The notes under the pieces were generated by a model. It was not told the origin of the DNA, searched no databases, and saw only the letters and a program-made list of their open reading frames with translations. Made by a program: the position numbers and the translations under genes. A stretch of 21,700 bases of DNA from Planctomycetota bacterium (GTDB lineage: Bacteria; Planctomycetota; SZUA-567; H5-PLA8), in the NCBI GenBank assembly GCA_038227875.1, contig JBBRPR010000095.1, forward strand, positions 1-21,700, read 5' to 3'. Positions 1,168 to 21,700 of the stretch are shown one piece after another (within the stretch, counting starts at the first letter, position 1; each line of letters starts with the position of its first letter).

Positions 1168-1175
1168 GATTTCCC

Positions 1176-1611: not shown

Positions 1612-1694
1612 AAACACGAACCCGTGAACGCACCCACGACCCGTGCACCCCCGCGACGCATGTAGAGGCACCGATGAGACAGCCCCCAGTCCAT

Positions 1695-1722
1695 GTAACA
1701 TTTGGTAACATTCCGTAACATT
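1695..1722. repeat. Three GTAACATT direct repeats at 10-bp period
   Basis: ccatGTAACATTtgGTAACATTccGTAACATTgc. Confidence 0.9.
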
Positions 1723-1780
1723 GCACCAAGAGAGCACCCAATCATGACCATGCCATTCCCCCGCGCAACGCACCCCCATC

Positions 1781-1812
1781 CAATCCGCAATCCGCAATCC
1801 GAAATCCGCAAT
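1781..1812. repeat. Heptamer tandem repeat (CAATCCG)n
   Basis: caatccg caatccg caatccg aaatccg caat. Confidence 0.9.
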
Positions 1813-1901
1813 GCCGTCCGATTGACGTCCCACCTTTTTCGGGTACTTTATCCCCTCTCGTTTGCCCAACATGTTCAAGGCACTTGCCTTGAGGAGGCCG
1901 C

Positions 1902-5302: not shown

Positions 5303-5313
5303 GAGTAAACCCA

Positions 5314-5973: not shown

Positions 5974-5982
5974 GAAAGGAGG

Positions 5983-8900
5983 TCACTGCGCATCCCATTC
6001 GTACTGCGATGCGCCATTTAGCGGGACGCTCCACCAATCGCCATGAACAACCGGTTGTACCGTGGCTTCCGTTCCGCCGCTGCACCGAATGGTTTTCGGC
6101 GGAGCAAACTTCGCGACGCTGTACTCCAATTGAAACCGGCGCGACGCCGGCATCACGAAGAGCTTCCACACCGCGCCTTCCTTGCGCAACAACGCACTGC
6201 CATCCGTGCGCACGGAACCAAAATCGACAACCTTGCCGGCAATGTTCAATCGTGTGGAAATCTGCGACTCCGGAACCTTCTCGATTTCAAACACCGGCTT
6301 CGCGCCCTCGCGAAGATGCAACGTTCCCAGCGCGATCCGATTTTCACCCGCATCCGCACCCTGCATGCGAATCCGTGAGCCGTCCTCTTTGGAATACAGC
6401 CCAATCGTCCAACGGTAGTCGCCGGCCTTCAGTCCACTTACATTCAAGGAGTACGGCCCGTCCTTGATCTCCTCACGCGCTTTCCATTGAGTCGTCGACG
6501 TCGGCAGCGCGTGATCCTGCTGCAATACTATCTGCCCCTTCTTCTCGCCCTCGGTGCCCAGGATATGAACAAAGCAAGCCATTTCCCGCAACTCGGTCTC
6601 GTTCACCGACCAGCGGTACGAAAAGTTGACCGCGCCCGGCGTCTTCGCGTCTGGTGTGAAATTCTCCAACACGGGAAGGATGTGCTTGGCGTTCGTCAGA
6701 TTCCAATCCAGCGCATTCCGCGCGTTTGCGAATATGGACTCCGGCGTCGCCGCGAAATCGCAGATCACGCCCTCGCGCATGGCCGTGTACGCGGTGACTC
6801 CCGCGCCCTCCGCCGCCCAGCCAAATTGCGGCAGCACGTTTGCTCCAGCTTTCAATTCCGTCGCTGCGCCGTTGGCGGTCAACACCAGGCCATTGCCGTA
6901 CGTGACGCGCACGCGATTCCATTGATTCGCCTTCGCTGCCGCCGTGGAATCCCGCCACGTGCCGTCGACCTCGTACTCGATCTTCGCCGCCTTCTCGGTG
7001 CCGTAACGCCGGGCCACCGGAGTAGTGAGATGATGTTCAAGCCACGCGAGCTGCGGCGTGGTGTAGAAGCGGCTGGCCAGCAGACCGGCGTGACCAAAAA
7101 TCAGTTCCTGCATGCGGTATTGATCGAGGTCCGTGAGCATGCCGTCGGGGCCGCGATCTTCCGCGATCCAGCGCTCGAAATAGCCCATGCCATGATTGCA
7201 CTGCAGCGGATGAATTTTCAGCAGATCGAAATCGACACAGAGCGGCACGTCGCGTCCGCGGTTGTTGTCCCAACCAGCCTTCAGTTCGGCCTCAACGCCG
7301 TCGAGACATCCCGACCAGAACCAATGATTTCCGCCCTCGCCAAAAACGGGACCGTCGTGCGTCTGCCGCTCCATCGCCCAGAGCGCGCGGTGCGTGTCCC
7401 ACGTGCTCTTGAACATGCCCGTGTCGCTTTCGCCGGGGCGGTGATCGACATGAAACCACGGCGGCACCGACGAATTTACGTCCAGGAACATCGCACTGGT
7501 GCCGAAGCGCGCGTGGATCTCCGGCGACTGCGTCTTTGCCAGCCGCAGCATCGCGCTGGGCCGCACGGCGAACGACTGCATTTTTGTGCCTTCGTTGTAC
7601 CAGGCCGTTATCCGTTTTCCCGCGGAGTCGAAGGCGATGTCCTGCTCGTCGAACTTTTCGCAGTTCGTGTAGTAGTCGACGTAATTCTCATGCAGCCCGA
7701 TCACGTAGCCCAGTTTTCGCGCCGTCGCGGTCAGTGTTTTCATCGCCTCATCGCCGCCCAGCTTTGTGTTGGCGGGCAGATGCGTCGGCAGACCGTTGTC
7801 GTAGCCGGAATTCTGCCAATCATGGATCAACACAATGCAGTCGCTGAGGCCCATTGCGTGAAGCTGTTCGAGCTTCTTCGCGATCTCCGCGTACTTGCCG
7901 CCCCAGACATCGACCACCAGCTTCCCACTCACCGCGCTCAATTTGGGCGACGGCGCGTTGGGAATGTTGGGCAGCACTTCATCGAGATTCCAGGCCACGG
8001 AGTATGCGGCGCGCTCCTGCAGCGGCCGGCGCGAACCGTCGGTCAGCGCATCGTAATGAGCCTGCATCCCGTCGTGGGCGCTTGCCGTCGACGCCGTCCA
8101 ATCCAGCTGCGAGCTGACGAACAAATTGTCGCTTGGCAGGTACTCGACAGACATGCTCGAAAGATACGGCACCACGATCCGGCGGCTGCGCAGCATCGGT
8201 CCCCAGTGTCCGGCGTCGAAGCGCGTGATCACCGGCTTGTCGCACGAAAATTCGACCTGCAGCGTCTTACCGGAAATCTTTCCCACCATCCGCACCACCG
8301 CGGGTTGTCCGCCCACCGAGTACGTGCTCACGCAGGTCGCGCTGTCGTCGGTGTGTTCCCAGCGGCTGCTCTGCCACTCGGCCTTGCCTGTCCATTCAAT
8401 CGTTACATCGCGTGCGAAATTCAGTTCGATCGGCTTTCCATCGCCTTTGAGCGGCAACACCTGAACCGTCAACTCGCCGAGCAGCGGATCGCTGCCGCTC
8501 TTCGGCAACTCCCAGCGGTAGCCGAACGCGCCATCGCTGCCGCTGTACTTCAATGTCGCCACGGAGTCGGCGATACTCACCGTCGTTTTTCCCGCGAACG
8601 CATTCGGCGGCGCAACGGATCCATTTGCGGTGGACGTCAACTGTGCCAGATCGGGAGCAGGCGCCGCGACGGTGTCGGTGGCCGCGGATTTGAAGCCCTT
8701 CACCACCAATGTGCGATTGCCCCAGACCGAAAAATCGAAACTGGCATTGTCCTGCGGGCCGGGATCGGTCTCGAAGCGGATTACGCCGCGCTTACCCGCG
8801 TAGGCGTTGAGATTGAATTCAAAATCCTTCCACTGCGTGTCGGTGCGATGGACGTCGAGCAGCTTTGTGCCATTCACGAAGACACGGAACGTGACGCCAT

Positions 8901-9279
8901 CGGATTTCTCCGTGCGGCCTTCGCCCAGCGCCGTCGCACCGCGCAGCAGAATTTCGGAACAGCCCGTGAAATCAAACGCGAACTGTTGAAAGGTCACGCC
9001 CGTCCCGCCGCGCCACGGACAGTGGAGCAGAAACGCTTTCCGTCCTTGCTGCGTGCCCACGGCCTTGCAACAGACGCCGGAATGCGCTTCCATTTCGCCG
9101 GACCAGCCGAGCGGAAAGTGAACCTCCGGTTTCGTGCGGTAGGCGTAACCGACGTCGTACAGGCCGATCTCGTCGAGCTCCATGACTTCCGCGTACGGTT
9201 TGATTGTTGGCGGCGCTTCTTCCGCCGGAATTCCACCGCAGCAGAGCAAAATTCCGATCGCTACCCAATTCCACCGCAT
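5983..9279 (-). CDS. Large secreted glycoside-hydrolase-like protein (DUF5696/GH129/GH101-like TIM barrel with accessory beta-sandwich domains)
   Basis: Start reassigned to ATG 9279 (RBS AAGGAG; signal peptide MRWNWVAIGILLCCGGIPA). Barrel motif HDWQNSGYDNGLP...LGGDEAMK...GYVIGLHENYVDYY, then MFLDV and GPVFGEG; NPCBM-like segment SDGVTFRVFVNG. Family assignment is from memory of motifs. Confidence 0.7.
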   Translation of the reverse strand: MRWNWVAIGILLCCGGIPAEEAPPTIKPYAEVMELDEIGLYDVGYAYRTKPEVHFPLGWSGEMEAHSGVCCKAVGTQQGRKAFLLHCPWRGGTGVTFQQFAFDFTGCSEILLRGATALGEGRTEKSDGVTFRVFVNGTKLLDVHRTDTQWKDFEFNLNAYAGKRGVIRFETDPGPQDNASFDFSVWGNRTLVVKGFKSAATDTVAAPAPDLAQLTSTANGSVAPPNAFAGKTTVSIADSVATLKYSGSDGAFGYRWELPKSGSDPLLGELTVQVLPLKGDGKPIELNFARDVTIEWTGKAEWQSSRWEHTDDSATCVSTYSVGGQPAVVRMVGKISGKTLQVEFSCDKPVITRFDAGHWGPMLRSRRIVVPYLSSMSVEYLPSDNLFVSSQLDWTASTASAHDGMQAHYDALTDGSRRPLQERAAYSVAWNLDEVLPNIPNAPSPKLSAVSGKLVVDVWGGKYAEIAKKLEQLHAMGLSDCIVLIHDWQNSGYDNGLPTHLPANTKLGGDEAMKTLTATARKLGYVIGLHENYVDYYTNCEKFDEQDIAFDSAGKRITAWYNEGTKMQSFAVRPSAMLRLAKTQSPEIHARFGTSAMFLDVNSSVPPWFHVDHRPGESDTGMFKSTWDTHRALWAMERQTHDGPVFGEGGNHWFWSGCLDGVEAELKAGWDNNRGRDVPLCVDFDLLKIHPLQCNHGMGYFERWIAEDRGPDGMLTDLDQYRMQELIFGHAGLLASRFYTTPQLAWLEHHLTTPVARRYGTEKAAKIEYEVDGTWRDSTAAAKANQWNRVRVTYGNGLVLTANGAATELKAGANVLPQFGWAAEGAGVTAYTAMREGVICDFAATPESIFANARNALDWNLTNAKHILPVLENFTPDAKTPGAVNFSYRWSVNETELREMACFVHILGTEGEKKGQIVLQQDHALPTSTTQWKAREEIKDGPYSLNVSGLKAGDYRWTIGLYSKEDGSRIRMQGADAGENRIALGTLHLREGAKPVFEIEKVPESQISTRLNIAGKVVDFGSVRTDGSALLRKEGAVWKLFVMPASRRFQLEYSVAKFAPPKTIRCSGGTEATVQPVVHGDWWSVPLNGASQYEWDAQ

Positions 9280-9448
9280 GAAGACACTCCTTTTCGCGCC
9301 GCCATTCCGTTGCACCGGCGAGAGCTTACCGATTTTCACAGCACGCGTCTTGACTCAGTACCGATTGCAATCTTCACCTCCATTTGTAATTGCCAGCGTG
9401 AGCTGGAATGGCGTATGGTTACGGAAACATTCCGAGGAGATATGCGCA

Positions 9449-10588
9449 ATGGCGATCATGACTGGTCTTTCCGGCAACGAGATGTTCTGTCTGCATAAGA
9501 AGGGGTATTCAGCCGGACATCTGGTCATCGGCAACAGCGTCTTCTCGATCGGGCTGATCGGCGGAATCGGATCGGGGCTGAAGACTCTGGCCGGCGGCGA
9601 AGTCACGCAGATCACCAGCGTCATCCACGAAGGCCGCCAGAAATCCTACGAACGCATGCGCGCAGAAGCTCAGAAGCAGGGCGGGGTGGGCATCACGGGC
9701 GTGACCAGCGAATTGGTCCAGCACGCGGGCAACGTCGAGTTTCTTTCGGTCGGGTCGTGCATCCACAAAGAGGGCGCGCGCTCCGAAGAAATGAACTTCT
9801 CGACCTCCGCTGACGGCCAGGAGCTCTATTGCCAGCTCGATTCGGGGTTCGAGCCGGTGAAATTTGTGTTCGGTAACGTGGCGTACTCGATCGGCGTCGC
9901 CGGCGGCATTGCCGGAATCTTCCGCAGCATGGCGCGGGGCGAGGTCAAAGAGTTCTCCGACATCTTCAACACGACGCGGCACCTGGCATTGCAACGCATC
10001 TCCGATGAAGCGCGTAGCGCGGGCGCGAACTCGGTGGTCGGCATCGAGACCTCGATCATCCCGTTTCAGGGCATGCAGGAAATGGTGATGATTGGAACCG
10101 CGTCGCGCCACCCGAAGCTCGACAAGAAGTACGACCAGAATCCCGTCACCAGCGATCTGACCAACGAAGAGATGTGGAACCTGATCCACATGGGCTACAT
10201 GCCGCTGCAACTGGTGCTGGGCGTGTCGGTTTATTCGGTGGGAATCGTGGGAGGGCTAATGTCTGCGTTGAAAGGGCTCGGCCGGGGCGAATTGAGCGAG
10301 CTGACGACGATGATCTACGAAGCCCGCGAAAATGCAATCGGGCGCATCGCCAAGGACGCCGTGGCCTGCGGCGCCGACGACGTGGTGGGCATCAAGACGT
10401 ACGTGTATCAGCTCGGCGGCGGCGTGATCGAATTCCTCGCCATCGGCACGGCCGTGAAGAAGATCGAAGGCCTGACGACCGTCACCGACTCTTTGCCGCC
10501 GCAAGCGATCATCCAGGACCGCGACACGTTTGTGAACACGGCTGAGACGGCGCTGGGAACGAACCTCAATCGTGGGCGGACGGAGTAA
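9449..10588 (+). CDS. Protein with three YbjQ/UPF0145 (heavy-metal-binding-like) domains
   Basis: RBS GAGGAG before ATG 9449. Three repeats of GN/GxSVYS-GxxGG...GEV/LxE...R..A..R...A...GA..VVG...EFLAIGTA. Confidence 0.8.
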   Translation: MAIMTGLSGNEMFCLHKKGYSAGHLVIGNSVFSIGLIGGIGSGLKTLAGGEVTQITSVIHEGRQKSYERMRAEAQKQGGVGITGVTSELVQHAGNVEFLSVGSCIHKEGARSEEMNFSTSADGQELYCQLDSGFEPVKFVFGNVAYSIGVAGGIAGIFRSMARGEVKEFSDIFNTTRHLALQRISDEARSAGANSVVGIETSIIPFQGMQEMVMIGTASRHPKLDKKYDQNPVTSDLTNEEMWNLIHMGYMPLQLVLGVSVYSVGIVGGLMSALKGLGRGELSELTTMIYEARENAIGRIAKDAVACGADDVVGIKTYVYQLGGGVIEFLAIGTAVKKIEGLTTVTDSLPPQAIIQDRDTFVNTAETALGTNLNRGRTE

Positions 10589-10598
10589 GGGCTTTTGA

Positions 10599-10635
10599 TC
10601 TCTCGCAAAGACGCGAAGACGCAAAGAACGGCATG
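10599..10635 (+). repeat. Dispersed short intergenic repeat, copy 2
   Basis: tctctcgcaaagacgcgaagacgcaaagaacggcatg, inverted relative to 1566-1611. Confidence 0.8.
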
Positions 10636-10654
10636 TACGGCTGTGATATGTGTT

Positions 10655-11016
10655 TTATGTCGGTGAGCGCGCAGAGAGACTGCGGATTGAGTATTCGCAG
10701 AGCATGGCGATCGCGGTAAGAGTTAGGGCTGCCGCGAGATGTTCCGCGACGAACACTTTCCAAAAGTTGTCGGCCTTGAAGTCCTTCCACTTTTCATGCC
10801 GAGTCGGCATGAGCATCAGGACCGTCCCACGGTCGCACTCAAGCCGGATTGGGCTGCGCCGCCGGATTTGCGAATTGTTCGATGGGTTCTGAAGACGACA
10901 GGGCGATACGCCAATCGGCGTAGTAACAACCATGTGGTGCCACTGGCGACGATTACGGTGATTACGGCAGTCAGCAGGTGGAATTGAAACCAACGGTGTG
11001 GATTCGTATTGTTCAT
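10655..11016 (-). pseudogene. Frameshifted small two-TM membrane protein (RWFQFHL-type N-terminus)
   Basis: N-terminus MNNTNPHRWFQFHLLTAVITVIVASGTTWLLL lies in one frame and the hydrophobic C-terminus VFVAEHLAAALTLTAIAMLCEYSIR in another. The span is 362 nt, not a multiple of 3. Confidence 0.55.
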
Positions 11017-11026
11017 CGATTTATCT

Positions 11027-11371
11027 TCACGGCTCACAGATATTTCCTTCTTCATCCGTTACATCAGCATCCAATAACTTCGCAAGCGCGAACGCGACAT
11101 GCAGAACCTCCTCTGAGCAATTGCCCGTGGCCTTGAATAGGACCACTCCTTCGAACAAACTGAATACCTTGATCCATCGATTCAAATCTTTGAAATAGAA
11201 GTCCACATCGCCATCATTTCCGGGCACGCGAATTTCCGCACCGGTTTTCGGATTCTTAACAACATTTCCCGCCGCGTTGGCGCGCAGGTCCTTTCGCGAG
11301 AGCACCGCGTTGTTCCAATCCTCCTGTCGAATTTTCCCGTGGCGACCCCTGATCAACATCTCGACTGGCAT
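11027..11371 (-). CDS. Small hypothetical protein (114 aa), immunity-protein-like
   Basis: RBS GAGGA before ATG 11371; lower GC; pattern I..EDW...V...L...NPKTG.EI.VPG...ALAKLLDADVTDEEGN. Confidence 0.7.
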   Translation of the reverse strand: MPVEMLIRGRHGKIRQEDWNNAVLSRKDLRANAAGNVVKNPKTGAEIRVPGNDGDVDFYFKDLNRWIKVFSLFEGVVLFKATGNCSEEVLHVAFALAKLLDADVTDEEGNICEP

Positions 11372-11521
11372 AGTTGATTTCCTCAAGATTTCTCGAGTCT
11401 ACACGCTTGAAATAGATCCTGAATTATTTTTTCAAATACTTGTCGGTTCCTCCTCCAAACCGGACATCTCCGGGTAATCGACGCCCTTGTGGGCGGGTTG
11501 GCTTGGGTCTGGGGAGCACGC

Positions 11522-12535
11522 ATGAAAACGTTAATGGTCATCGTAACCGTAGCACTTATCGCAACTTCCATCGGAGCGGCTGATATAAAACTGGCCGACG
11601 CGACGCTCGGAAAGACGGTCCATGGGCCGGAGCTAACTTTGAATGAGATGAAAGGGCAGGTCGTGCTGCTGACGCATTGGGGCGCGCATTGTGGTACGTG
11701 CGTCGCGCTGCTGCCGGAGTGGCAGGCGCTCTACAAAAATTACAACGATCAGGGGCTGCATGTCGTCGGATTGGAGATGGATAAGCTGACCGACAGCGAA
11801 GTCGACACGCTCTGCAAATCGCGGCATGTCGGGTTTCAGGTGAACGTCGGCGGCGCGCTGATGGTCGGCGGACATGCCAACTGGCCGCACACATTCCTGT
11901 TCGGCGCGGACGGAAAGCTCCTCGCCGACAATATCGAAGGCAAGGAACTCGAAGCCAAAGTCAAGGAAGCGCTCGCCGAAGCGAACAGCATCGACGCCGG
12001 CTACGGTCCGTACACGAAACTCGCGCCGCTGGCCGCGCAGGTGAAGGCGGGCCAGGGACTCGGGCAGGTGCTGAAGACGCTGGCAGCAAAGAAGAGCAGC
12101 AAGGACGCGGCGGAAGCTTCTGAAGCGACCATGATGTTCGACGCAGTCAACGGCCGCGCCGATGGGATGCTCAAGCAGGCGCTGGCGGACAGCGCGGCCA
12201 AGCCGCTCCCAACCATCGCGAAGCTGGAGAAACTCGCGCAACAGTTTGACGGCTCGGAGATCGGGAAGTCAGCGAAGCTGGAAGCCGAAAAGCTGAAGAG
12301 CGATCCGGCGGTACGCAAGGAGATCGAAGCGAACGGTATGTACAACCAGCTGCAGACACTGTGCGACGGTATGAAAGCTGTGCAGGGCATCACCAGTCCG
12401 AAGGCCGAGGCGTACCGCCGCGTGAATGCGCAGGCGATTCAAGCTGTCGTCGCCGGTTGCCAACAGTTGGTGCAGCGCTATCCCGGCACGAAAGCCGCTA
12501 CGAAGGCCGGAGAAATGATGGACGAGTACCGCTGA
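11522..12535 (+). CDS. Secreted TlpA-like thioredoxin-fold protein with a helical C-terminal region
   Basis: RBS GGGGAG; signal peptide MKTLMVIVTVALIATSIGA; LNEMKGQVVLLTHWGAHCGTC (CxxC); cis-Pro motif WPHTFLFGADGK. Confidence 0.85.
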   Translation: MKTLMVIVTVALIATSIGAADIKLADATLGKTVHGPELTLNEMKGQVVLLTHWGAHCGTCVALLPEWQALYKNYNDQGLHVVGLEMDKLTDSEVDTLCKSRHVGFQVNVGGALMVGGHANWPHTFLFGADGKLLADNIEGKELEAKVKEALAEANSIDAGYGPYTKLAPLAAQVKAGQGLGQVLKTLAAKKSSKDAAEASEATMMFDAVNGRADGMLKQALADSAAKPLPTIAKLEKLAQQFDGSEIGKSAKLEAEKLKSDPAVRKEIEANGMYNQLQTLCDGMKAVQGITSPKAEAYRRVNAQAIQAVVAGCQQLVQRYPGTKAATKAGEMMDEYR

Positions 12536-12562
12536 ACGGCGAGTGCTGAGGACTGCGGGGTG

Positions 12563-12581
12563 GCCTGGCCCCTCGGGCCGG
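12563..12581. other. GC-rich intergenic hairpin
   Basis: cc-tggccc-ctc-gggccg-gg downstream of the redoxin stop. No U-tract, so not a clear intrinsic terminator. Confidence 0.35.
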
Positions 12582-12723
12582 GTCGCTTGGCGACAGGAAG
12601 TTACGCTGAGCTCGCCGATAACGATTGTCCAGGTGCTTCGAAGATGAAAAGAAGGTCCGTAATTGTTCCCAGTTAGCGTCGTCCATCATCTACAATTGTT
12701 GGACGACCATCACAGAGGGACCG

Positions 12724-15078
12724 ATGCACGACTGGGATCTGCTGCAAGACTACGTGACGAAAGGGTCCGACGCGGCATTTGCGCAGGTCGTCGAACGCCA
12801 CACGAACATGGTCTATGCGTTCTGTTACCGGCAGGTGCGCAACCGGGAACTGGCTGAAGAAGCGACGCAGACGGTTTTCATCATCCTGGCCCGGAAAGCC
12901 GCGGGATTGAAGCGCGAGACGGTGCTGGCCGGCTGGCTGTTCAAAACAGCGCGGTTTGCCATCGCCAATGCGTTGAAGATCGAAGCGCGCAAGCGGCGCA
13001 TCCAGATGAGGGCAATGGCGATGGCCAGCGCAACGCAATCACGGGAGCAGCCTGCCGCGGCCAGCGATGCGTTCGTGCTGCTCGACGATGCGCTGGCCAC
13101 ATTGCCTGACATCGAACGGAACGCGGTCCTGCTGAAATATTTCGAGCAGCAGTCGCTGGCGGAAGTGGGCTCGGCGCTGGGTGTCTCGACGGACGCGGCC
13201 GAAAAGCGGATCTCGCGCGCCATAGGAAAGCTGCACAGTTACCTCTCGCAGCGCGGCGTGGTGTTGAGCATCGTCGGAATGGGTGGGCTGCTCACGGCGT
13301 CCGCTTCACAGATGGCGCCAAGCGGGCTGGCGGCTGCGGTGACGAAATCACTGGCGTCGCAGTCGGTCTCCGCGGCGGGGGCTCATTCCAGCCCCGCGCT
13401 GGTTGAAAGTACGTTGCGCGCGATGCAGTGGGCACGCTGGAAACCTGCGCTGACCGCGGCGAGCGTGCTACTCATTGCGTGCGCGGTGGCATGGGTGGCT
13501 CGCATCGGCGGGGCGACCCTGACGCCAGTGGCTGCGAACACATCGAGTGTTCAGTCCGCGACACCGATGGCCGATCCGCCGCCGGTTGCCGAAGCGAAAA
13601 TGAGGCAGGAACTTCGCGCGATTTTCAGCCACTTGACCGGCGAGCCTGCCGCGCGCGACGCGGCAGAGCAGGAAATTTTGAAATTTGTGCGTCGATCAGG
13701 GCAACCGGCGTTCGCGGCCTTGACTGAATTCGCACATGCGCCGACGACACGTGCAGAACCGGATGTTGCGGCGCGGTCGGCGCGCGTCTTGAAGATGCTG
13801 ATGCAGCCGGAATTCCTGTGGGGGCAGACAACGGGCGCGACCTTCAGTCATCCGCCACGGCCAGCGGCGGCCCCGACACTTGTGACGCAGAGCACCGACG
13901 ATGGCGTGTTTGTGCTCGATGCGGAAAGCGGCGCGATCCAGTGGAGCAAGCCGATGCGTGCGGCGCCGAGCGTCGGCGCGATTTCCGGCACGACAGTGTT
14001 CAGCGCCATGCCGTTTGATCGGGCCAGTCCGCAAGCGGCGCTCGTCGGTTTGGGTGACGGTGGTACAGCGCTTTGGACGCATGCGTTCGATGCGCTCTAT
14101 CCGGCCGGTGCGATCGCGCAGATCCGGACGTCGCTGGCGCTGGATGCGCAGGCCGGTCGCGTGTACATCACGGCCGGCGCGGATGACCAGGAATGCCTGA
14201 GCGCCTTCACGACCGCCGGTCAGACTGTTTGGAGCAAGCATGTCGGCACACTCTCCGGTGATCCGGTGCTCGCGCCGGATCTGAATCTCGTTGTCGTTGG
14301 CTGCGAGAATTCGATCGGGGGCGGCGATCCGCAACTCCGCGCGGTCCACCTTGCCGACGGTACGGCGGCGTGGTCGGCGACTTTTCTCGGGCTTCATCGC
14401 AACTGCGTGGGGGAGGGTAGTGGCCGCGTCTACGCAGCCGCAGCCGGCGACGGTCAGGACGCGGCGTTCAATCAGGCGACGCATCTGATCAGCCGCGATG
14501 CAACGAACGGCGCGGCAGTGTGGGATTGCGCGGTGGCTAAAGCGCTGCCGGCAGCGCCGCAACGCGTGACGCTCGAATACCTCGGGCAGTCGAAATTCGG
14601 CGAGCATTCGTGGCATGAACCGGGTGGTTCTGACTTGGATATTATTGGCGTGCCGCTGAGCGCGGCGAAGCATCAGTGGGTGGTGTCGCAGACGCGCCGG
14701 TTCCTGTTCGGCATCGACGCGAAATCGGGTGTGCTGAAATGGAGCACGCCCTGTTTGCGTGTGGATGAAACGCATTTCGCGGAGCGCGACGGAATTGTTT
14801 TTGCGGGAACCGACGAGGGCTTGCTGCTCGCCGTCCGCGCCAGTGACGGGCGGGTAGTTTGGTCGCTGGACTTGAATACGTATCCAGCGGCGGTGAATGC
14901 GCCGCGCGTGCTGGAAATTCGCAACAACGATTTTCCCAACGCCACCCGTCGCATCGGACCCATCGGCGAGCCCACGGTTTTTGACAACATTCTTTACGCC
15001 ACTACGGCTGGCGGCTGGACCTTTGCGCTGCGCCTTCCAGAATTCAATTTGGACGACACGGAGGCGAACGGAAACTAG
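12724..15078 (+). CDS. ECF sigma-70 factor fused through a TM helix to a PQQ-like (BamB-type) beta-propeller
   Basis: Start ATG 12724 (RBS GAGGGA). Region 2: DAAFAQVVERH...AEEATQTVFIILARKA...LAGWLFKTAR. Region 4: LDDALATLPDIERNAVLLKYFEQQSLAEVGSALGVSTDAAEKRISRAIGKL. TM segment ALTAASVLLIACAVAWV. Repeated LDAxSG..xW propeller motifs. Confidence 0.9.
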   Translation: MHDWDLLQDYVTKGSDAAFAQVVERHTNMVYAFCYRQVRNRELAEEATQTVFIILARKAAGLKRETVLAGWLFKTARFAIANALKIEARKRRIQMRAMAMASATQSREQPAAASDAFVLLDDALATLPDIERNAVLLKYFEQQSLAEVGSALGVSTDAAEKRISRAIGKLHSYLSQRGVVLSIVGMGGLLTASASQMAPSGLAAAVTKSLASQSVSAAGAHSSPALVESTLRAMQWARWKPALTAASVLLIACAVAWVARIGGATLTPVAANTSSVQSATPMADPPPVAEAKMRQELRAIFSHLTGEPAARDAAEQEILKFVRRSGQPAFAALTEFAHAPTTRAEPDVAARSARVLKMLMQPEFLWGQTTGATFSHPPRPAAAPTLVTQSTDDGVFVLDAESGAIQWSKPMRAAPSVGAISGTTVFSAMPFDRASPQAALVGLGDGGTALWTHAFDALYPAGAIAQIRTSLALDAQAGRVYITAGADDQECLSAFTTAGQTVWSKHVGTLSGDPVLAPDLNLVVVGCENSIGGGDPQLRAVHLADGTAAWSATFLGLHRNCVGEGSGRVYAAAAGDGQDAAFNQATHLISRDATNGAAVWDCAVAKALPAAPQRVTLEYLGQSKFGEHSWHEPGGSDLDIIGVPLSAAKHQWVVSQTRRFLFGIDAKSGVLKWSTPCLRVDETHFAERDGIVFAGTDEGLLLAVRASDGRVVWSLDLNTYPAAVNAPRVLEIRNNDFPNATRRIGPIGEPTVFDNILYATTAGGWTFALRLPEFNLDDTEANGN

Positions 15079-16428
15079 ATGATGAGAATTTCGCGAAGTC
15101 TTTTGCTGCTTGCAGTCGTATCACTTTCCATGGCCGCTGCCGAGTCGCCGATCGTGTGGAATCAGCGCACCAGCGGGAATCCATTTTGGATGCCTGCGCC
15201 GCTAGTGGCCGAAAGCGAGAATGTCCTGATCCAGATGACCGGCGAGGGGCTCTACGCGCTGGAATTTGATACGGGGAAAATCCTGTGGACGAAGACCGGC
15301 ACGGAGGCGGGATTCAGACTCAGTCCGCCGTGCCTCAACAATGGCGTTATCTACGCTGCGATGCCGAATGCGGAGAAAAATCGCTCGCGCGCCATCGCTG
15401 CGTACAAGGTGAAGGACGGGCAGGAACTCTGGCAGCACAGTTTCGCTGAGTTTTACAAAGATGATTCGTACGGTTCGATTCATTCGGCGATTGTGTTCGA
15501 TGCGGTCAATTCCCGGTTGCTGGTCTGTGTCGGGGATACGCCCAACGAGAAACTCGTGGCGCTGGATCTCAGTGGCAAGCAGGTCTGGGCCGCGGAAATC
15601 GGCGCGAAGCTGGCCTCCCCCATCGTTTCGGCCGAGCAGAAAATGGTCTACTGCTGCTGCGGCAATCCCGAAGGCGAGCCGTCGCACCTGGCGGCTGTGA
15701 ATCTCGCCGACGGCACCGTAGCGTGGAAGAAAGTGATCTGGGGCGGCAACGACGGAGCCACCGATGCGCTGCCGGTCGGCGACCGGGTCTATCTTCTGGC
15801 CGATGACAAACCCAGTGCGACTGCTTTTCGCGATCAGAATCTGCCGGCCGAGGGCTACATCTGTTGTTTGGATGCGAAGACCGGAAATGAGATCTGGGTC
15901 TGCGACATCAACGAAAACTTTAAGGACGACGGCAGTCCTGCTCGCTCGCGAGAATCCTGTTATTACCACGCAGGCCAGAGTACTTGGGGTGTGTTGACGA
16001 TGTTCAACAAAGGTGTGAATCGCCGCGCCGTCGGTTCACCGATGCTCGCCGACGACGGCAAGCGATTGATCACGCAGAACGAATACGGCATCTGCGGCAT
16101 CGATACGTCGAGCGGCAATGTGGTGTGGCGCGTGCGCAGTCCACGGCTCGAGCGCTGCCACTACGCGCTGAAAGGCGACGCGGTGCTGACCGGCGATGAC
16201 ATGGGCGGCATCTCTGCGATGCGCGCCAGCGACGGGCAATTCTTCTGGCGCCTCGATCTCGCCAGAATGCCGGCTGCCGACAAGGTTCCAAAGGCGGAGC
16301 ATGGCGCTCCAGTGGTCGGGCCGGTGGGCGATCCAACGGTGATCGGCGATTACCTCTACGCCACGACCTGTGGCGGCTATACGTTCAAGCTCAAGATGGC
16401 TCCGTTGCAACCCGCCGGCGCGCGGTGA
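15079..16428 (+). CDS. Secreted PQQ-like beta-propeller protein, paralogous to the C-terminal domain of the upstream sigma factor
   Basis: Signal peptide MMRISRSLLLLAVVSLSMA; motifs ALEFDTGKILW, CLDAKTGNEIW, GIDTSSGNVVW, AMRASDGQFFW; starts immediately after the upstream stop. Confidence 0.9.
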   Translation: MMRISRSLLLLAVVSLSMAAAESPIVWNQRTSGNPFWMPAPLVAESENVLIQMTGEGLYALEFDTGKILWTKTGTEAGFRLSPPCLNNGVIYAAMPNAEKNRSRAIAAYKVKDGQELWQHSFAEFYKDDSYGSIHSAIVFDAVNSRLLVCVGDTPNEKLVALDLSGKQVWAAEIGAKLASPIVSAEQKMVYCCCGNPEGEPSHLAAVNLADGTVAWKKVIWGGNDGATDALPVGDRVYLLADDKPSATAFRDQNLPAEGYICCLDAKTGNEIWVCDINENFKDDGSPARSRESCYYHAGQSTWGVLTMFNKGVNRRAVGSPMLADDGKRLITQNEYGICGIDTSSGNVVWRVRSPRLERCHYALKGDAVLTGDDMGGISAMRASDGQFFWRLDLARMPAADKVPKAEHGAPVVGPVGDPTVIGDYLYATTCGGYTFKLKMAPLQPAGAR

Positions 16429-16431
16429 GTC

Positions 16432-17628
16432 CTACCTCAGCACCGCCGCGAGAAAACGTTCGATGGCGTAGAGCGACAGTTGCCCGCCCGGGCCGCTCAA
16501 GTTGGCGTCGCAGCCGTGATTGCCCCACGGGATGCGCAGGAAGTAATGCTTCACGCCCGCTTCGGTCAGGCGTTGATCCAGCCGTTCGCTGTGGACAACC
16601 GGGACGACGTCGTCGCGGTCGCCGTGAATCAGCAATGTCGGCGGTGCGGCGAACTTGACGAAGTTGAGCGGCGAGCCGCTACGATACGCGTCCGCCAAGC
16701 TGCCAGGATTCCCACCGAGGAAACTTTCGAGCACTGCAGTCGAATCGAGCACTCGGGGGTTGCAGGGGTGATCGTAGGCGTAGACCAGGTCGGTGGGCGA
16801 ATAGATCGCGACAACGCCGCGAATGGCAGGATCGTTGGATGTGTATGCGTGCAGCAATGCCAGGTGTCCACCGGCCGAACGACCGAGGAGCGCGATGCGT
16901 TTAGCGTCCAGATTCAACGCGGTTGCATTGGCCTTTAAATAGGCGATGGCGGCTTGCACATCTTCCGAGGCGATTGGAAATCGGAACGTGGGCGCCAGCC
17001 GGTAATCGACTGAGGCCACAAAATATCCGCGCGAGGCCAGGTAATGGTTGATGCGCGGTAATTCTGTTCGATCGCCTCCGCGCCACGCGCCGCCGTGAAT
17101 CACAACCAGCACGGGTGCAGGCTTGGAACTGGAGCTTTGCGGCGGCGTGTACACATCCATCGCCAGTGCGCTGCCGCCCGGCGATGCGAAATCCACGCTC
17201 GACCGCTTCACCGGCGGGCACGAAATGCCCAGCACCAAATCACTCCACACAAGTGGCGCCGCCCGCGGCGGTGCGTTTTCAGTTGAGCTAGGCTGCACCG
17301 TGCCAAACGCGCTTTCGACACCGGCGCGAATTTCGCCGGAAAGCAGTGAAGCTCTGACGATCGTACTGAGCGCGAGACAGATTCCGACACAGCCCAAAGC
17401 AGCGCCTACCAGGGCAGGGCGAGATGTTCTCAAACCGGGCAGGAGCGGAAGCAGACTGAGCAGCGCGATGTAGTGTCCCCATTCGGTCATGCCGACGGCC
17501 AGCAACCAGCAAATCCGCGTGGGCGCCGGCACAAACGGCAGCAGGCCGAGCGCGACGCAGAAAATTCCCAGTGCCAGACGCAGCCAGGGAATCGCACGTT
17601 TAAATGCGGAGAGGTTCACAATCACCAC
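16432..17628 (-). CDS. Membrane-anchored alpha/beta hydrolase (HSL/BD-FAE-like esterase)
   Basis: HGGAW oxyanion motif, VDYRLAP, GRSAG nucleophile, HGDRDDVVP, catalytic His in GNHG; three N-terminal TM segments. Start uncertain (GTG at 17628, 17625 or 17619). Confidence 0.9.
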   Translation of the reverse strand: MVIVNLSAFKRAIPWLRLALGIFCVALGLLPFVPAPTRICWLLAVGMTEWGHYIALLSLLPLLPGLRTSRPALVGAALGCVGICLALSTIVRASLLSGEIRAGVESAFGTVQPSSTENAPPRAAPLVWSDLVLGISCPPVKRSSVDFASPGGSALAMDVYTPPQSSSSKPAPVLVVIHGGAWRGGDRTELPRINHYLASRGYFVASVDYRLAPTFRFPIASEDVQAAIAYLKANATALNLDAKRIALLGRSAGGHLALLHAYTSNDPAIRGVVAIYSPTDLVYAYDHPCNPRVLDSTAVLESFLGGNPGSLADAYRSGSPLNFVKFAAPPTLLIHGDRDDVVPVVHSERLDQRLTEAGVKHYFLRIPWGNHGCDANLSGPGGQLSLYAIERFLAAVLR

Positions 17629-17647
17629 GCTAGCGCAGTCGGAGTTC

Positions 17648-18628
17648 TTACGACTTGCGCCGGAATTGAGGGAGGGCAGGGTAGCCCGGGCCACCGATCT
17701 GCCCAAGGATCTGAGCGTCTTTCGCCTTCTTAACGAATTGCTTCAGTGCTTGCACGTCTTGTTTCACGAAGAATCGGTAGAGGTTGGCGTGGCCCTCCGC
17801 TTCTCCATAAGCTGCCTTGAAGTACTTCGGCGCGAGATCCAGATTCAGACGCAAGCCGATCGCAGGCGAATGTTGTCCGCCCAGCGCATAGACGCGGGCT
17901 TCGCCGAGTTGCTCGAACATGATCAGCTTGCGGTAGTACATTTCATGATTCGCTGGCACCAGGACGCAAATGTCGGTGGCTTCCAGCACGTTTCGAGCGT
18001 AACGCCACGCGGCGCGAAAGAGGTGGAGGCGAGCCCAGCGAGCCACGTCCTTATGTGGCGTCTCGATGGCCAGACTTGAAAATCCGCACAGCTTGCGCCC
18101 GCTGTGCCGCAGCGCCTTGAGTTCTGCATGGTAAAGTTCATCGGCCGGCAAACCCAACACGCTGTCGGGCAGAACAGTCAAAGCGCCGACGAGCTTCCGC
18201 TCATGATGGATCAGCAGCGTGCGTGCCTCGCCGAGGCGATTGAAAGAGTCGATGCGGAGTTTGACGGGGCCGGTTTCCGGCAGCCCTTCCTGCCGGAAGC
18301 AACGGTAGACCAGACAGTACGCTTCTTCCAGGTCCGGCCAGCTGCGTGCCGCGGTGAGCTCCAGATTCAGCTCCGCGTTACCGGTCTTGCATGAGAACGC
18401 CTCTTTTTGAGTGCTGAGTCCCAGCAAGGAGTTAATGGCGGAATGCCGCTGAGCCGCCGTCTCTGGAGAGGCGTGCACGCATCCACCGCAGGCATGAAAG
18501 CCTTCTGCCTGCAGTTTCAGGCAATGTTCAACTGTGACCTGACGCGTGATGAAGGCCTTGCGGCCGTCCACGGGGTTGGGGCAATTCCGGAAGATGACTG
18601 TTTCAGGCGGTTTAAGATTCGGTTCCAT
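17648..18628 (-). CDS. FeeM-like N-acyl amino acid synthase (GNAT/LuxI-like acyltransferase) with a Cys-rich N-terminal extension
   Basis: DLEEAYCLVYRCF..EG, LVGALTVLPDSVLGLPADELYHAELKALR..GRKLCGFSSLAI, DICVLVPANHEMYYRKLIMFEQLG, PAIGLRLNL. RBS-like GGAAGG/GAGA region upstream is weak. Confidence 0.75.
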   Translation of the reverse strand: MEPNLKPPETVIFRNCPNPVDGRKAFITRQVTVEHCLKLQAEGFHACGGCVHASPETAAQRHSAINSLLGLSTQKEAFSCKTGNAELNLELTAARSWPDLEEAYCLVYRCFRQEGLPETGPVKLRIDSFNRLGEARTLLIHHERKLVGALTVLPDSVLGLPADELYHAELKALRHSGRKLCGFSSLAIETPHKDVARWARLHLFRAAWRYARNVLEATDICVLVPANHEMYYRKLIMFEQLGEARVYALGGQHSPAIGLRLNLDLAPKYFKAAYGEAEGHANLYRFFVKQDVQALKQFVKKAKDAQILGQIGGPGYPALPQFRRKS

Positions 18629-18915
18629 GATGGAAGGAAATCTCTGCGGGTCGTGCGGAGGAAGAAAGAGCTGCAGACACGAAGCAGTACTGGAACGGTT
18701 CCCAGAGTCCTGATCGTAGGCGAACTCCGTGCATCACGCAAGGCTCATGGTTTTCACACCGAGGAACAGAGTCGTAGCGTTTGGATTAAAAGTCGCCAGC
18801 CCTCCTTGATTCTTTTCGCATGAGTTGATAACATTCGCGCCTCAATCATGCCGCTGGTTGAGAAGCTCAGAAGTACCATCCGCGGAAGTAAAACAACTGA
18901 ATAGAAATACGAGAC

Positions 18916-18956
18916 GGAGAGGTGCCAGAGTGGTCGATTGGGCTTGTCTCGAAAAC
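18916..18956 (+). tRNA. 5' half of tRNA-Ser(CGA), truncated two bases after the anticodon loop (attL-like junction)
   Basis: GGAGAGG-TG-CCAG-AGTGGTCGA-TTGG-G-CTTGT-CTCGAAA-AC gives the acceptor 5' strand, the D arm with GG, and the anticodon CGA at 18950-18952. The 3' stem should read ACAAG but reads ACTAA. No variable arm, T arm or CCTCTCC acceptor 3' strand follows. Confidence 0.9.
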
Positions 18957-19016
18957 TAATGCCATGTCGTTGTAAACTCTTAAACTGCCGATGTTTCTTG
19001 CTTTAAATGACCTCAA

Positions 19017-19039
19017 GGGTATATCAGACGGGTATAGCA
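19017..19039 (+). promoter_or_regulatory. Putative integrase arm-type binding sites
   Basis: Direct repeat GGGTATATCA (19017-19026) / GGGTATAGCA (19030-19039), 9 of 10 identical, 13-bp period, between the att core and the integrase start. Confidence 0.55.
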
Positions 19040-19060
19040 AGTTCCCGTTTGTGAGGCAAC

Positions 19061-20641
19061 ATGGCTCGGAATTTTTCGGCCCATCCTCGCGTCCGACTTT
19101 GGCGCAAGAGCAACAGCGGACATCACTATCTCTACTGGCGAGACCCACGAGACAATCGCCGCCAGCGCAACGATTCCACGGGTACAGAAGACTCGCTTGA
19201 AGCACAACGAATGGCCTTGAGCCTTTCACGATATCTTCGCGATCCAGAGAACTCTCCTCCAGACTTACACCCCAAGATTTCCGAGATCCTCGGTATTAAC
19301 CTCTTGGATCAGCGCATCGTTTCCGCAAAGTTGGCAATTGTCGACGACATCGTCGCCACGTCAAAAAGCGAACACAAAGGCAAGGTGGATCTATACAGAG
19401 AACTCGTAAAGGAACTCGTCGCTGCATTTGGCGGTCCTGCTGGCGATGTTTTGACGAATACGATAGATGTCGTTCGTAGCAAGTTTGCTGCTGGTCGGCA
19501 GCCTACGGTGGATTCTCGCGAAGTCTATGAGCTGCTTGACCTGCTCAAGACGGTGTCGATCGATAGGGATCAATGGCGCGACCGTTCGCGGGCGCTGGAG
19601 GGTCTTGTACGAGAAAAGGGCCAGCGGTTCATCTTGCGGACAGAGCCGAAGTCCATCAAGCAAGCTGTCGAGGAATTCATGGCAGCACCGGATGGCATGT
19701 CTTCTAAGGGTCAATGGCGCTACTCGGTCGAATGCTGGTTGAATCGGTTTGCCCGAGAACTCAAGTCCGTAAAAAACGTTCATGACCTGACGCCTGAACA
19801 AATCGTGGCGCATATTCAAAAGCAGAAAGGCGTCGCATCGACAAAAACGAGCATGACGACCTACATCTGCCTGTTCATGAAATGGGTTTCAAAGGGAACG
19901 TTCGACTGCCCCACTGTCCGCAGCGCAATTCTCGATAATTTGGAAGAAGAGAGCCCAGAATGGTTCTGGCTAAAGAAACAAGAATCGCTCGATTTGATCG
20001 CGAGAGTCCGCAAACTTTCTGGAGACTATTGGGCTGATGCGGCGCTTCTACAGTATGGATGCGGCTGGCGACCAGAAGAGTTGCCCTTACTGAAGCGCTC
20101 TGCCGTCGCGATCGCTGAGAACGCTTGTTCCATACGGATTGCACCAATTTTTGACGACAAACGGAAGCTCGTTCGGCGTATTAAGACGCAGCGTTCTGAG
20201 GACACGATAATCATTCCTTCATTCGCTCGCGAAGCCGTCGAACGGCGCATGGCGGCAACGTCCTCGGAGTATCTGCTGTTTCCATTGTTCGATGAATCGC
20301 TGATCCAGCCAAAACTGCGCGAGAACCGTACTCGGTTTGAATCCAACAATCATTTTTGGCCAGCCGCGGATGATCGAGCATTTACAGACAACTATCGACC
20401 GATCCTAAGGAAAGCAGCAAATGAACTGGCTAAGGAATTGACGGGAGCAGAGAAGAAATCGGCTGCGGAACGATTTTCTGACAAAAATATCGACTCGCGA
20501 ACGCTTCGACGAACATGCGCTCGCGAGATGATCCTCGCCCATGGCTTCGAGAAAGCCGCCGCGGTTCTTCGTGACAGTATTGAAACACTGAGAAAGCACT
20601 ACGCTGACTTGCAGGCAGCGGATGTCTCAACAGAGCGATAA
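19061..20641 (+). CDS. Tyrosine recombinase / phage-type integrase (526 aa)
   Basis: RBS GAGG; arm-binding-like N-terminus (YLYWRDPRDNRRQRNDSTGTEDSLEAQRMA); core-binding region (SIKQAVEEFM...VHDLTPEQIVAHI); catalytic motifs GCGWRPEEL, IKTQRS, SRTLRRTCA, VLRDSIETLRKHY. Confidence 0.9.
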   Translation: MARNFSAHPRVRLWRKSNSGHHYLYWRDPRDNRRQRNDSTGTEDSLEAQRMALSLSRYLRDPENSPPDLHPKISEILGINLLDQRIVSAKLAIVDDIVATSKSEHKGKVDLYRELVKELVAAFGGPAGDVLTNTIDVVRSKFAAGRQPTVDSREVYELLDLLKTVSIDRDQWRDRSRALEGLVREKGQRFILRTEPKSIKQAVEEFMAAPDGMSSKGQWRYSVECWLNRFARELKSVKNVHDLTPEQIVAHIQKQKGVASTKTSMTTYICLFMKWVSKGTFDCPTVRSAILDNLEEESPEWFWLKKQESLDLIARVRKLSGDYWADAALLQYGCGWRPEELPLLKRSAVAIAENACSIRIAPIFDDKRKLVRRIKTQRSEDTIIIPSFAREAVERRMAATSSEYLLFPLFDESLIQPKLRENRTRFESNNHFWPAADDRAFTDNYRPILRKAANELAKELTGAEKKSAAERFSDKNIDSRTLRRTCAREMILAHGFEKAAAVLRDSIETLRKHYADLQAADVSTER

Positions 20642-20643
20642 CC

Positions 20644-20934
20644 ATGATAATGTCGGCAAGAACGGAACCACACCGGCCGTACTCGCATGTCCTGTCCGAG
20701 AATTTTCTTGCGGCGGTCAGACAGGCGGCTCTCATGATCCGCCAAGGCCGCGATGACTGGAAGCCCGTGATCAAGCTCGCGCTAGATCTGGAATTCCCGA
20801 CTGACAGCGGCATGAAGACTTATGCCGAGGCGAGCTTCTCGGAAATCGTTGGGATGCTGCTGAAGGGCCGGACAACAATCTGCATTCATCGAAGTCTCAG
20901 TCATGGATTCGAACTCTTCGCGGAGGATGAATGA
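20644..20934 (+). CDS. Hypothetical protein (96 aa) directly downstream of the integrase
   Basis: ATG 2 bp after the integrase stop; globular-looking sequence with no recognisable motif. Confidence 0.6.
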   Translation: MIMSARTEPHRPYSHVLSENFLAAVRQAALMIRQGRDDWKPVIKLALDLEFPTDSGMKTYAEASFSEIVGMLLKGRTTICIHRSLSHGFELFAEDE

Positions 20935-21050
20935 TGGCCGATTCTTCGGACATCCTGCTTGACGTATCGACTGGGATCTCCAACGAGCGTGCCGTCATCT
21001 CTGAGAACGCCAACTCAATCTTTAACCTGTCGTACTTCGGAACAAGTTAA
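20931..21050 (+). CDS. Possible 39-aa small protein (MMADSSDILLDVSTGISNERAVISENANSIFNLSYFGTS)
   Basis: ATGA overlap with the previous stop and RBS GGAGGA at 20922-20927. Below the ORF-track size cut-off. Confidence 0.4.
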   Translation: MMADSSDILLDVSTGISNERAVISENANSIFNLSYFGTS

Positions 21051-21122
21051 GTCCGTGCTCTCCTAAGCGAACGCAACTGGCCGGCGCTCATCTTGCTGGC
21101 CGCTGATTACGCGGGAGGACGC

Positions 21123-21467
21123 ATGTTCACGCTCATCGCTCTGGCAGTCGGATTGTCGCTGATGTTTGGAACTGGGGAATGCTTCCCCGCTCGACGACTG
21201 GGATTTTGCATTCTCGTTGTCCTTCTCGGGTACTTGGGCTATCGACTAATCGAATCCGTTGCCGGGACCGCCGTCGATGCCGTTCATGCCGTGCCGGCGG
21301 TCGCCGTCAAGGTTCTTGAACCTATTGAGAAGATCATCGATCCAGTGATCGTCTGGATCGGCGAGACCGTCGCATACGTCGTGAATTGCATCCTTTACTT
21401 CATCTGCATCGTCTGCTTCATGCTCTTCTACGGGTACTTCAATCTCTTTCGCAAGATCGGGTCGTGA
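21123..21467 (+). CDS. Small membrane protein (114 aa, ~3 TM)
   Basis: RBS GGAGGA before ATG 21123; three hydrophobic stretches. Confidence 0.65.
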   Translation: MFTLIALAVGLSLMFGTGECFPARRLGFCILVVLLGYLGYRLIESVAGTAVDAVHAVPAVAVKVLEPIEKIIDPVIVWIGETVAYVVNCILYFICIVCFMLFYGYFNLFRKIGS

Positions 21468-21559
21468 CGCGCCGCGTCGAGTTCAATCTTCGGCAATATT
21501 TAAGGCCGTGCTCTATATCGAAAAAGGATGGTCTCGTTTGAACGCAAACGAACGCGAAT

Positions 21560-21700
21560 TGTCAGCGGCCACTCAAAATAGGCCACCGCTGGCCACTTCA
21601 AAATAGGCCATGTTAAGGGGATGTTCGAACAGGGTAGCCTGCGCCGTTTTTGGGCGGAGGAGATCTTGTGTCGAACGAACTGAGCATGGCGGAGCGAGCG
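21560..21700 (+). mobile_element. Left end of an IS21-family insertion sequence
   Basis: Starts TGTCAGCGGCCA; tandem internal repeats GGCCACT-CAAAATAGGCCA (21567-21585) and GGCCACTTCAAAATAGGCCA (21591-21610), the multiple-repeat end architecture of IS21 elements. Confidence 0.8.
21668..21700 (+). CDS. istA: Start of putative IS21 transposase IstA (partial: MSNELSMAERA...)
   Basis: RBS GGAGGA then GTG at 21668, ~108 bp inside the IS end. Only 11 codons are visible. Confidence 0.55.
   Translation, partial: MSNELSMAERA

Follow-up and report, generated by a model that had tools for sequence, protein, structure and literature searches.

A tRNA-Ser(CGA) 5' half beside a divergent integrase gene in a Planctomycetota genome: probable reversed-orientation integration with rebuilding of the tRNA gene

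The host-element junction and the integrase gene

The window analysed here is the entire contig C95 (21,700 bp) of genome G000, a metagenome bin of 9.34 Mb in 176 contigs with a completeness of 88.1% and a contamination of 3.99%. The junction between host and element DNA lies in its right part, with the following features.

17648-18628, - strand: FeeM-like N-acyl amino acid synthase (Pfam PF21926, E = 9.3e-33), the last host gene before the junction
18886-18915, + strand: host region upstream of the tRNA, possibly promoter-proximal or leader sequence, resembling C52:3785-3816
18910-18956, + strand: 47-bp exact repeat, equal to C52:3811-3857, the putative attL/attR identity block
18916-18956, + strand: displaced 5' half of tRNA-Ser(CGA), tRNA positions 1-41, the putative attL remnant
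18948-18954, + strand: anticodon loop of 7 nt, the probable crossover (overlap) region
18957-19060, + strand: element arm between the crossover and the integrase start, unrelated to tRNA
19061-20641, + strand: putative divergent tyrosine recombinase (integrase) of 526 aa, starting 105 nt after the fragment
20644-20934, + strand: element ORF of 96 aa, with no Pfam or PHROG match and no paralogue in the genome
21093-21467, + strand: element ORF of 124 aa, with sub-threshold matches only (TrbC, E = 0.052; holin PHROG, E = 0.19)

The G+C content around the FeeM-like gene is genome-like (~0.60). The FeeM-like family is strongly expanded, with 18 matches in G000 and 22-28 in some relatives, and one paralogue lies ~2 kb from a tRNA-Ser(UGA) gene on contig C102. 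Window positions 12625-15078 hold an ORF of 817 aa in which ECF-type sigma-70 regions 2 and 4 are fused to a PQQ/beta-propeller domain, and its 3' neighbour is a second beta-propeller ORF of 449 aa. A promoter scan found no sigma-70 consensus in 18600-19200, and the same interval contains no terminator-like site. UCG was described as frequent in the host genes by the first-pass annotation, and the count agrees: it is the commonest serine codon (93 of 330; 28%) in the ten window ORFs that were taken as host genes by their length and Pfam matches. Such a frequency argues for selection to restore the tRNA gene rather than for tolerance of its loss.

Read from its sequence, the fragment at 18916-18956 belongs to a type II (long-arm) tRNA-Ser and includes the acceptor and D arms. 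The 5' strand of the anticodon stem occupies 18943-18947 and the anticodon CGA 18950-18952; only two nucleotides of the 3' strand of the stem follow the loop (18955-18956), after which unrelated DNA starts with TAATGCC. The fragment is thus a 5' half of 41 nt that ends 2 nt beyond the anticodon loop, as the first-pass annotation had held. ARAGORN calls no tRNA gene in the 21,700-bp window, and Rfam gives no tRNA match at E <= 1 in window positions 17416-20560. The fragment is nevertheless not a chance look-alike, since all 41 of its bases are identical to the 5' part of an intact gene on contig C52 (described below). That no 3' half is present in the remaining 2.7 kb is also true, and reflects only the end of the contig, the window being the whole of C95. 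The G+C content is 0.604 at 1-18915 vs 0.527 at 18957-21700, with a genome mean of 0.596; 2-kb windows with a G+C content of <=0.53 make up 3.3% of the genome and those with <=0.42 make up 0.1%.

The product of 19061-20641 is taken to be a divergent tyrosine integrase, for which recombination activity is predicted. It matches the Pfam family Phage_integrase (PF00589) only below threshold, with E = 0.035 and 14.3 bits, the cut-off being 27.1, and eight of ten aligned members of its clade match the same family (best E = 3.4e-9). The best PDB match of the ten-sequence profile is the tyrosine recombinase XerA (5hxy; E = 0.0094). Residues R337, K375, R480, R483 and Y514 are invariant in all ten aligned sequences. 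Four of them (R337, K375, R483 and Y514) account for the Arg, Lys, second Arg and Tyr of the catalytic set R...K...HxxR...H/W...Y, with R480 standing at the first His position; the last His/Trp position is not conserved in the ten-sequence alignment, in the register set against XerA. The two His positions vary across the tyrosine recombinase family. The ORF is full length with its conserved catalytic positions all present, and homologues of the integrase sit beside tRNA genes or tRNA fragments. There are five homologues in G000; matches were also obtained in six other genomes when 400 were sampled across the phylum, and in six of the 19 other genomes of the order. A wider pattern search from a two-sequence integrase alignment gave 65 matches, none of which was confirmed.

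The motif TATCAGA occurs once in the window, at 19022-19028 (66 nt after the junction), and four times in C52:1-12000, two of these copies standing in tandem (3721 and 3734) 83-96 nt before the intact tRNA gene; at least four copies were reached in two of 200 shuffles. A pair of TATCAGA-like CTATCAC motifs precedes the closest paralogue of the integrase gene, on contig C54. These repeats are weak candidates for arm-type sites.

The intact tRNA-Ser(CGA) gene and its proposed link to the window

ARAGORN places an intact tRNA-Ser(CGA) gene of 90 nt at C52:3817-3906 in the same genome, and Rfam matches it over its full length with 54.2 bits (gathering score 29). When the genome was searched with window positions 18916-19060, the fragment was identical to C52:3817-3857 at 41 of 41 positions, and this intact gene is the only other match to the fragment's tRNA in the 9.3-Mb assembly. 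Both copies lie on the + strand of their own contigs. The identity continues upstream of the tRNA to complete the 47-bp block, the next 24 nt are identical at 21 of 24 positions with a 2-nt indel, and the similarity then ends. Taken as a whole, 18886-18915 and C52:3785-3816 agree at 27 of 30 aligned bases apart from the 2-nt indel, with the final 6 nt identical, and beyond ~30 nt upstream the window and C52 copies show no similarity. From this likeness a promoter-proximal role is predicted for 18886-18915. On the other side, past tRNA position 41, the window and C52 sequences are unrelated.

A search for the 3' half, which the first-pass annotation had proposed as a check, locates it only within the intact C52 gene, preceded by a full 5' half. 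No orphan 3' half of tRNA-Ser(CGA) was found in the assembly when the 81 ARAGORN tRNAs were compared with the genome by BLAST (the bin being 88% complete). The genome-wide ARAGORN check for another Ser(CGA), likewise proposed there, gives intact genes on C52 and in a tRNA array on contig C25. This array (C25:15917-21842) contains ~30 tRNA genes on one strand within ~6 kb, forming a near-complete isoacceptor set with a host-like G+C content of 0.578, and its tRNA-Ser(CGA), at 16068-16157, is a second and different one. The array might derive from a mobile element or a phage. The ARAGORN calls also include a tRNA with the anticodon CTA (labelled Pyl) and two tRNA-SeC (C67:21469-21544, C13:840-935 and C47:42458-42548).

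The G+C content of C52 is 0.403 at positions 1-3816 vs 0.588 at 3907-63268, the shift falling at the tRNA gene. To the left are small ORFs, including one for a ribbon-helix-helix protein; to the right are ordinary metabolic genes, among them FUSC-like, GH9 and TIM-barrel genes. The composition shift and the gene content on either side therefore place the C52 tRNA exactly at a boundary between foreign and host DNA, with the foreign DNA on its 5' side. Two adjacent ORFs in the left part of C52 (L004), 1489-2040 and 2104-2604, are paralogues of 183 and 166 aa without a family match and are 51% identical (aligned segments 1779-1898 and 2343-2460). The sequence immediately before the C52 tRNA showed no sigma-70 promoter, the nearest consensus match (9/12) ending 139 nt upstream; many host tRNA genes in G000 show TTGACA-type upstream boxes.

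The most convincing account of the two loci, in which we place considerable confidence, is a reversed-orientation (5'-replacement) integration into tRNA-Ser(CGA), by which the gene was rebuilt and not inactivated. The right part of the window and the left part of C52 would then be the two ends of one element. The layout is that of a reversed island: in the window a fragment is followed by element DNA, and on C52 an intact gene is preceded by DNA of low G+C content and followed by host-like DNA. The pair of features on which an Islander-type test relies, an end fragment (here positions 1-41) and an intact tDNA, is found. The first-pass annotation had called the arrangement the opposite of the usual one, which is correct. 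It had further suggested that the element might supply a replacement 5' half together with a promoter; the identical 5' half at the C52 boundary upholds the first part, and for the second we infer that the element provides the rebuilt gene with a working promoter.

The other outcome that it had considered is a switch, in which the element inactivates tRNA-Ser(CGA), wobble reading by tRNA-Ser(UGA) covers UCG and excision restores the gene. The fragment does stand alone at the window junction and a tRNA-Ser(UGA) gene is present on C102, but the intact 54.2-bit tRNA-Ser(CGA) with its identical 5' half refutes this model by the standard that the annotation itself had set, and UCG is the commonest serine codon (28%) in the host ORFs of the window; we give the switch practically no credence. 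Regulated gene integrity, by which the tRNA would be non-functional while the element is integrated, was rejected on the same intact 54.2-bit gene.

A join between C95 and C52 was not obtained: the end of C95 matches nothing else in the assembly, and C52 starts with a 140-bp multi-copy repeat that is common to the ends of contigs C48 and C119. The two element pieces differ in G+C content (0.53 in the window vs 0.40 on C52) and have no genes in common, and their ORFs showed no linking paralogues elsewhere in the genome. In metagenome contigs the 41-nt 5' half was recovered at 12 loci, ten of which have an intact tRNA-Ser(CGA) and two the fragment only. Two unrelated metagenome contigs, L048 and L049, each have only the 5' half of this same tRNA-Ser(CGA). 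The fragment on L048 (2920-2960) ends at the same base as the window fragment. On L049 (region 11-326) the fragment ends after the full anticodon stem, and ~165 nt past it lies a remnant of 36 aa that is 56% identical to the integrase C-terminus, indicating a decayed relative.

It is conceivable that the loci are unrelated, the window fragment being a decayed remnant or lost copy and C52 carrying a separate tRNA-Ser(CGA) with some other inserted neighbour. The missing physical link between the contigs and the differences in G+C content and genes between the pieces would suit this explanation, and the integrase remnant on L049 demonstrates that decayed cases exist. However, the window integrase is full length with complete conserved catalytic positions, the 47-bp block is perfectly identical, which is unfit for an old remnant, TATCAGA motifs flank both pieces, and a stranded 5' half implies a partner with the 3' half, of which only one exists. 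We consider unrelated loci highly improbable.

The contig ends of the assembly share exact overlaps of 140 bp, which suggests assembly at k = 141, so that the junctions would be spanned by words longer than the 47-bp repeat, and the contigs do run through this repeat. In a k = 31 graph of the probable source run, the 47-bp block forms a separate unitig with a depth of 30.5, and the depths are 11.1 for the host flank, 11.4 for the element and 8.8 for the other end. These depths are consistent with the presence of the element in essentially all cells. No sign of an excised or empty form and no attB or attP joints were seen in the source run, in which k = 31 unitigs cannot resolve the 47-bp repeat. 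In the Logan runs X2-X4, pieces of the host flank are present at high identity, and the missing cover of the element there is no evidence either way. An exact 30-nt host-specific pattern had no match in metagenome contigs, the 12 metagenome loci all lack a flank in common with C95 or C52, and the search thus yielded no empty attB. The FeeM ortholog in relative G004 (59% identity) has neither a tRNA nor shared neighbours beside it and shows no synteny, identity among GH9 homologues of the family does not exceed 37%, and neither flank is shared by family-level relatives; these relatives are too distant for a comparison of synteny.

The same data bear on an artefact of assembly or binning, namely a chimeric join across the 47-bp repeat or a mixture of strains with and without the element. 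G000 is a metagenome bin with 3.99% contamination, and the separate unitig at k = 31 means ambiguous paths at that k. Against such an artefact, the left flank of C52 differs from that of the window beyond ~30 nt, so C52 is not the empty site; the 140-bp overlaps at the contig ends point to a k of 141, longer than the repeat; the depths of host and element match (11.1 and 11.4); and the same layout recurs on single contigs elsewhere. An artefact of this kind appears very unlikely to us.

Integrase homologues and analogous elements

The reversed layout is found on single contigs in three further cases, on C54 and C7 of G000 and in relative G006. C54 encodes the closest paralogue of the window integrase (499 aa, 37% identity). 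A 5' fragment of tRNA-Pro(GGG), positions 1-47, lies at C54:33363-33317, the integrase gene follows 107 nt on, and after ~20 kb with a G+C content of 0.50 the intact tRNA-Pro(GGG) is found at C54:13248-13170; fragment, integrase and intact gene are all on one strand of one contig. This element (~20 kb) shows both features required by Islander, an integrase gene between fragment and tDNA and a span of 2-200 kb on one replicon. On C7 a 5' fragment of tRNA-Thr(TGT), positions 2-41, and the intact gene 13 kb downstream of it delimit an island at C7:60502-73572, and an ORF of 366 aa immediately precedes the intact gene. A fourth 5' fragment in G000, from tRNA-Thr(CGT) (positions 1-38), is located at C68:6570-6607, with the intact gene on C11. 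The Thr(TGT) fragment runs 3 nt beyond the anticodon loop and the Thr(CGT) fragment 1 nt beyond it; in all four 5' fragments of G000 the identity starts at tRNA position 1 or a few bases from it and ends 1-6 nt after the loop. The first ORFs of the C68 piece resemble a Y-family DNA polymerase and a small tyrosine recombinase, both putative and judged from their first residues only.

In G006 an intact tRNA-Val(TAC) and an integrase homologue are divergently oriented and separated by 58 nt. The 5' fragment that was predicted for the far end of this element was found 72.8 kb upstream on the same contig (positions 1-42, 100% identity). Relative G167 has the other layout: an intact tRNA-Val(GAC) precedes the homologue, and 28.4 kb downstream there is a 3' fragment (positions 33-77) whose identity begins at the first base of the anticodon loop. 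The loop is the only segment common to the reversed and the standard layouts, which places the probable crossover within it. The 17 integrase homologues examined in a survey of the clade are distributed as follows.

Reversed layout, n = 3: the window (Ser), C54 (Pro) and G006 (Val-TAC)
Standard layout, n = 8: G148, G411, G167 and G185 (Val-GAC), G015 (Gly-TCC), G013 (Leu-TAG), C66 of G000 (Tyr) and G016 (Gly 3' fragment)
Remaining homologues, n = 6: at contig ends or with no tRNA piece found

When ten of the integrases were placed in a maximum-likelihood tree, the window and C54 sequences pair with a support of 91/88, and G006 falls inside a fully supported tRNA-Val group with four standard members. 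With its few sequences and long branches, the tree suggests that the orientation changed at least twice within the clade.

In the genome as a whole, four of the 18 end-type tRNA fragments are 5' fragments and 14 are 3' fragments, after four internal matches and a dispersed repeat matching a dubious tRNA-Lys call were set aside. Compared with ~4% in Islander this is an excess that is only suggestive, the 3' fragments having been counted as fragments and not as confirmed island ends. The dispersed sequence, of ~35 nt and with more than 60 copies, corresponds to positions 31-65 in the 83 nt that ARAGORN calls as tRNA-Lys(ctt) at C24:109711-109793 and often occurs in inverted pairs ~90 nt apart (for example at C3:57060-57217 and C5:41092-41215). 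It looks like a short repeat family, and the tRNA-Lys(ctt) call on C24 is probably false.

In both the window and the C54 element, the tRNA 5' half lies ~105 nt upstream of the integrase start and points the same way, and nothing resembling a terminator separates the two. The half that precedes the integrase gene is the host copy in the integrated state and would be the element's own after excision as a circle. One could imagine from this that a tRNA promoter drives the integrases of the window/C54 subclade, with half a tRNA as leader, both integrated and excised, that the carried half was flipped at least twice in the clade and that G000 is unusually rich in reversed islands (4 of 18 vs 159 of 3919); taken jointly, these propositions are speculative and rather unlikely all to hold.

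Proposed mode of integration and relation to known systems

For the 5'-replacement integration that we favour, the following course may be envisaged. The excised element would begin with a tRNA-like upstream region of its own, continue with the tRNA 5' half up to and including the anticodon loop, and then carry the integrase arm and the integrase gene, so that attP would contain the 5' half with ~30 nt of tRNA-upstream sequence in place of the usual 3' part. Recombination with the chromosomal tRNA gene would take place in the anticodon loop in reversed orientation. The host promoter and 5' half would be left stranded in front of the integrase gene, as in the window, and the upstream region and 5' half of the element would be joined to the host 3' half at the other end (C52:3817-3906). 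The tRNA gene would in this way be rebuilt base for base and would now be transcribed from element DNA. The likeness of the carried upstream sequence to that of the host (27/30) suggests an origin of the reversed attP in which the left flank of tRNA-Ser(CGA) was captured from a related host, and the captured flank may bring promoter-proximal signals with it.

Zhao & Williams 2002 (J Bacteriol 184:859) reportedly describes tDNA islands of reversed orientation, and integration at the anticodon loop is said to form the sublocation class 'A' of Williams 2002. Recombination on the 5' side of tRNA genes is presented as rare but real in PMC6563490 and PMC8371274, the former citing Zhao & Williams 2002 and archaeal cases. 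Of the 3919 islands in Table 1 of the Islander paper (PMC4383910), 3760 have a 3' fragment and 159 a 5' fragment. The window element belongs to this known minority class: as in the islands with a 5' fragment that Islander describes, the 5' part of the gene is carried, the fragment lies upstream and the intact gene downstream, and the rebuilt gene would rely on island DNA for its promoter. Unlike known reversed islands, it has an integrase from a poorly matched clade (Pfam E = 0.035) and a host from a little-studied lineage, and ~30 nt of native-like tRNA-upstream sequence travels with its 5' half.

The pTN3-like integrases of Thermococcales (Cossu et al. 2017 and Krupovic & Bamford 2008, via PMC8371274) offer a second parallel. 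According to PMC8371274, their attB is likewise the 5' half of a tRNA gene, a situation 'seldomly encountered in bacteria', and an uninterrupted tRNA gene is restored that is expressed from element sequences, as we propose for the rebuilt Ser gene. These archaeal integrases are described in the same source as 'suicidal', their own gene being split by integration, whereas the window integrase ORF is intact; the tRNA is said there to be expressed from the integrase promoter, whereas the window integrase and the rebuilt tRNA are at opposite ends of the element. The G006 element, with its integrase gene adjacent to the tRNA and divergent at 58 nt, comes closer to the pTN3 arrangement as given in PMC8371274.

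Standard anticodon-loop integration also shares much with the present case, including a tyrosine integrase, a probable crossover in the 7-nt loop, a symmetric stem and restoration of the gene, and its layout is the one shown by the eight homologues of the window integrase at tRNA-Val(GAC), Gly(TCC), Leu(TAG) and Tyr. The difference lies in the identity block, which extends from the loop towards the 3' end in the standard mode and from the loop towards the 5' end and beyond in the window element.

A more distant comparison is the tRNA-dependent lysogeny known in actinobacteriophages (Guerrero-Bustamante & Hatfull 2024, PMC10865867), in which a tyrosine integrase also acts at a tRNA gene and the integrase-side junction is also without a functional tRNA. 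As that paper describes it, the core is ~10 bp and the gene is rebuilt at neither junction, its loss being complemented by a separate phage tRNA; in the present case the gene is rebuilt at the distal end through a 47-bp block. Applied to G000, this precedent would make the integration non-restoring and the C52 gene a complete tRNA carried inside the element. Such a reading could draw on the missing join between C95 and C52 and on the redundancy of tRNA-Ser genes, to which the C25 array adds another Ser(CGA) and C102 a Ser(UGA). It is countered by the 59 kb to the right of the C52 tRNA, which are host-like (G+C content 0.588, housekeeping-type genes) and mark a boundary rather than the interior of an element, by the lack of an orphan 3' half in the assembly, by the 47-bp block with similar sequence upstream of it in place of a ~10-bp core, and by the three single-contig analogues, which rebuild the gene at the boundary. 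We regard non-restoring integration as highly improbable and retain the reversed-orientation integration with rebuilding of the gene.

The attractive reading of this locus as an on/off switch for a tRNA thus gives way to a clear example of a minority mode of integration. Islands of this kind would escape tools that search for 3' fragments alone or depend on Pfam to recognise integrases. With both orientations in one integrase clade (three reversed, eight standard and six other among 17), these elements constitute a natural system for asking what fixes the half of the tRNA gene that is carried.
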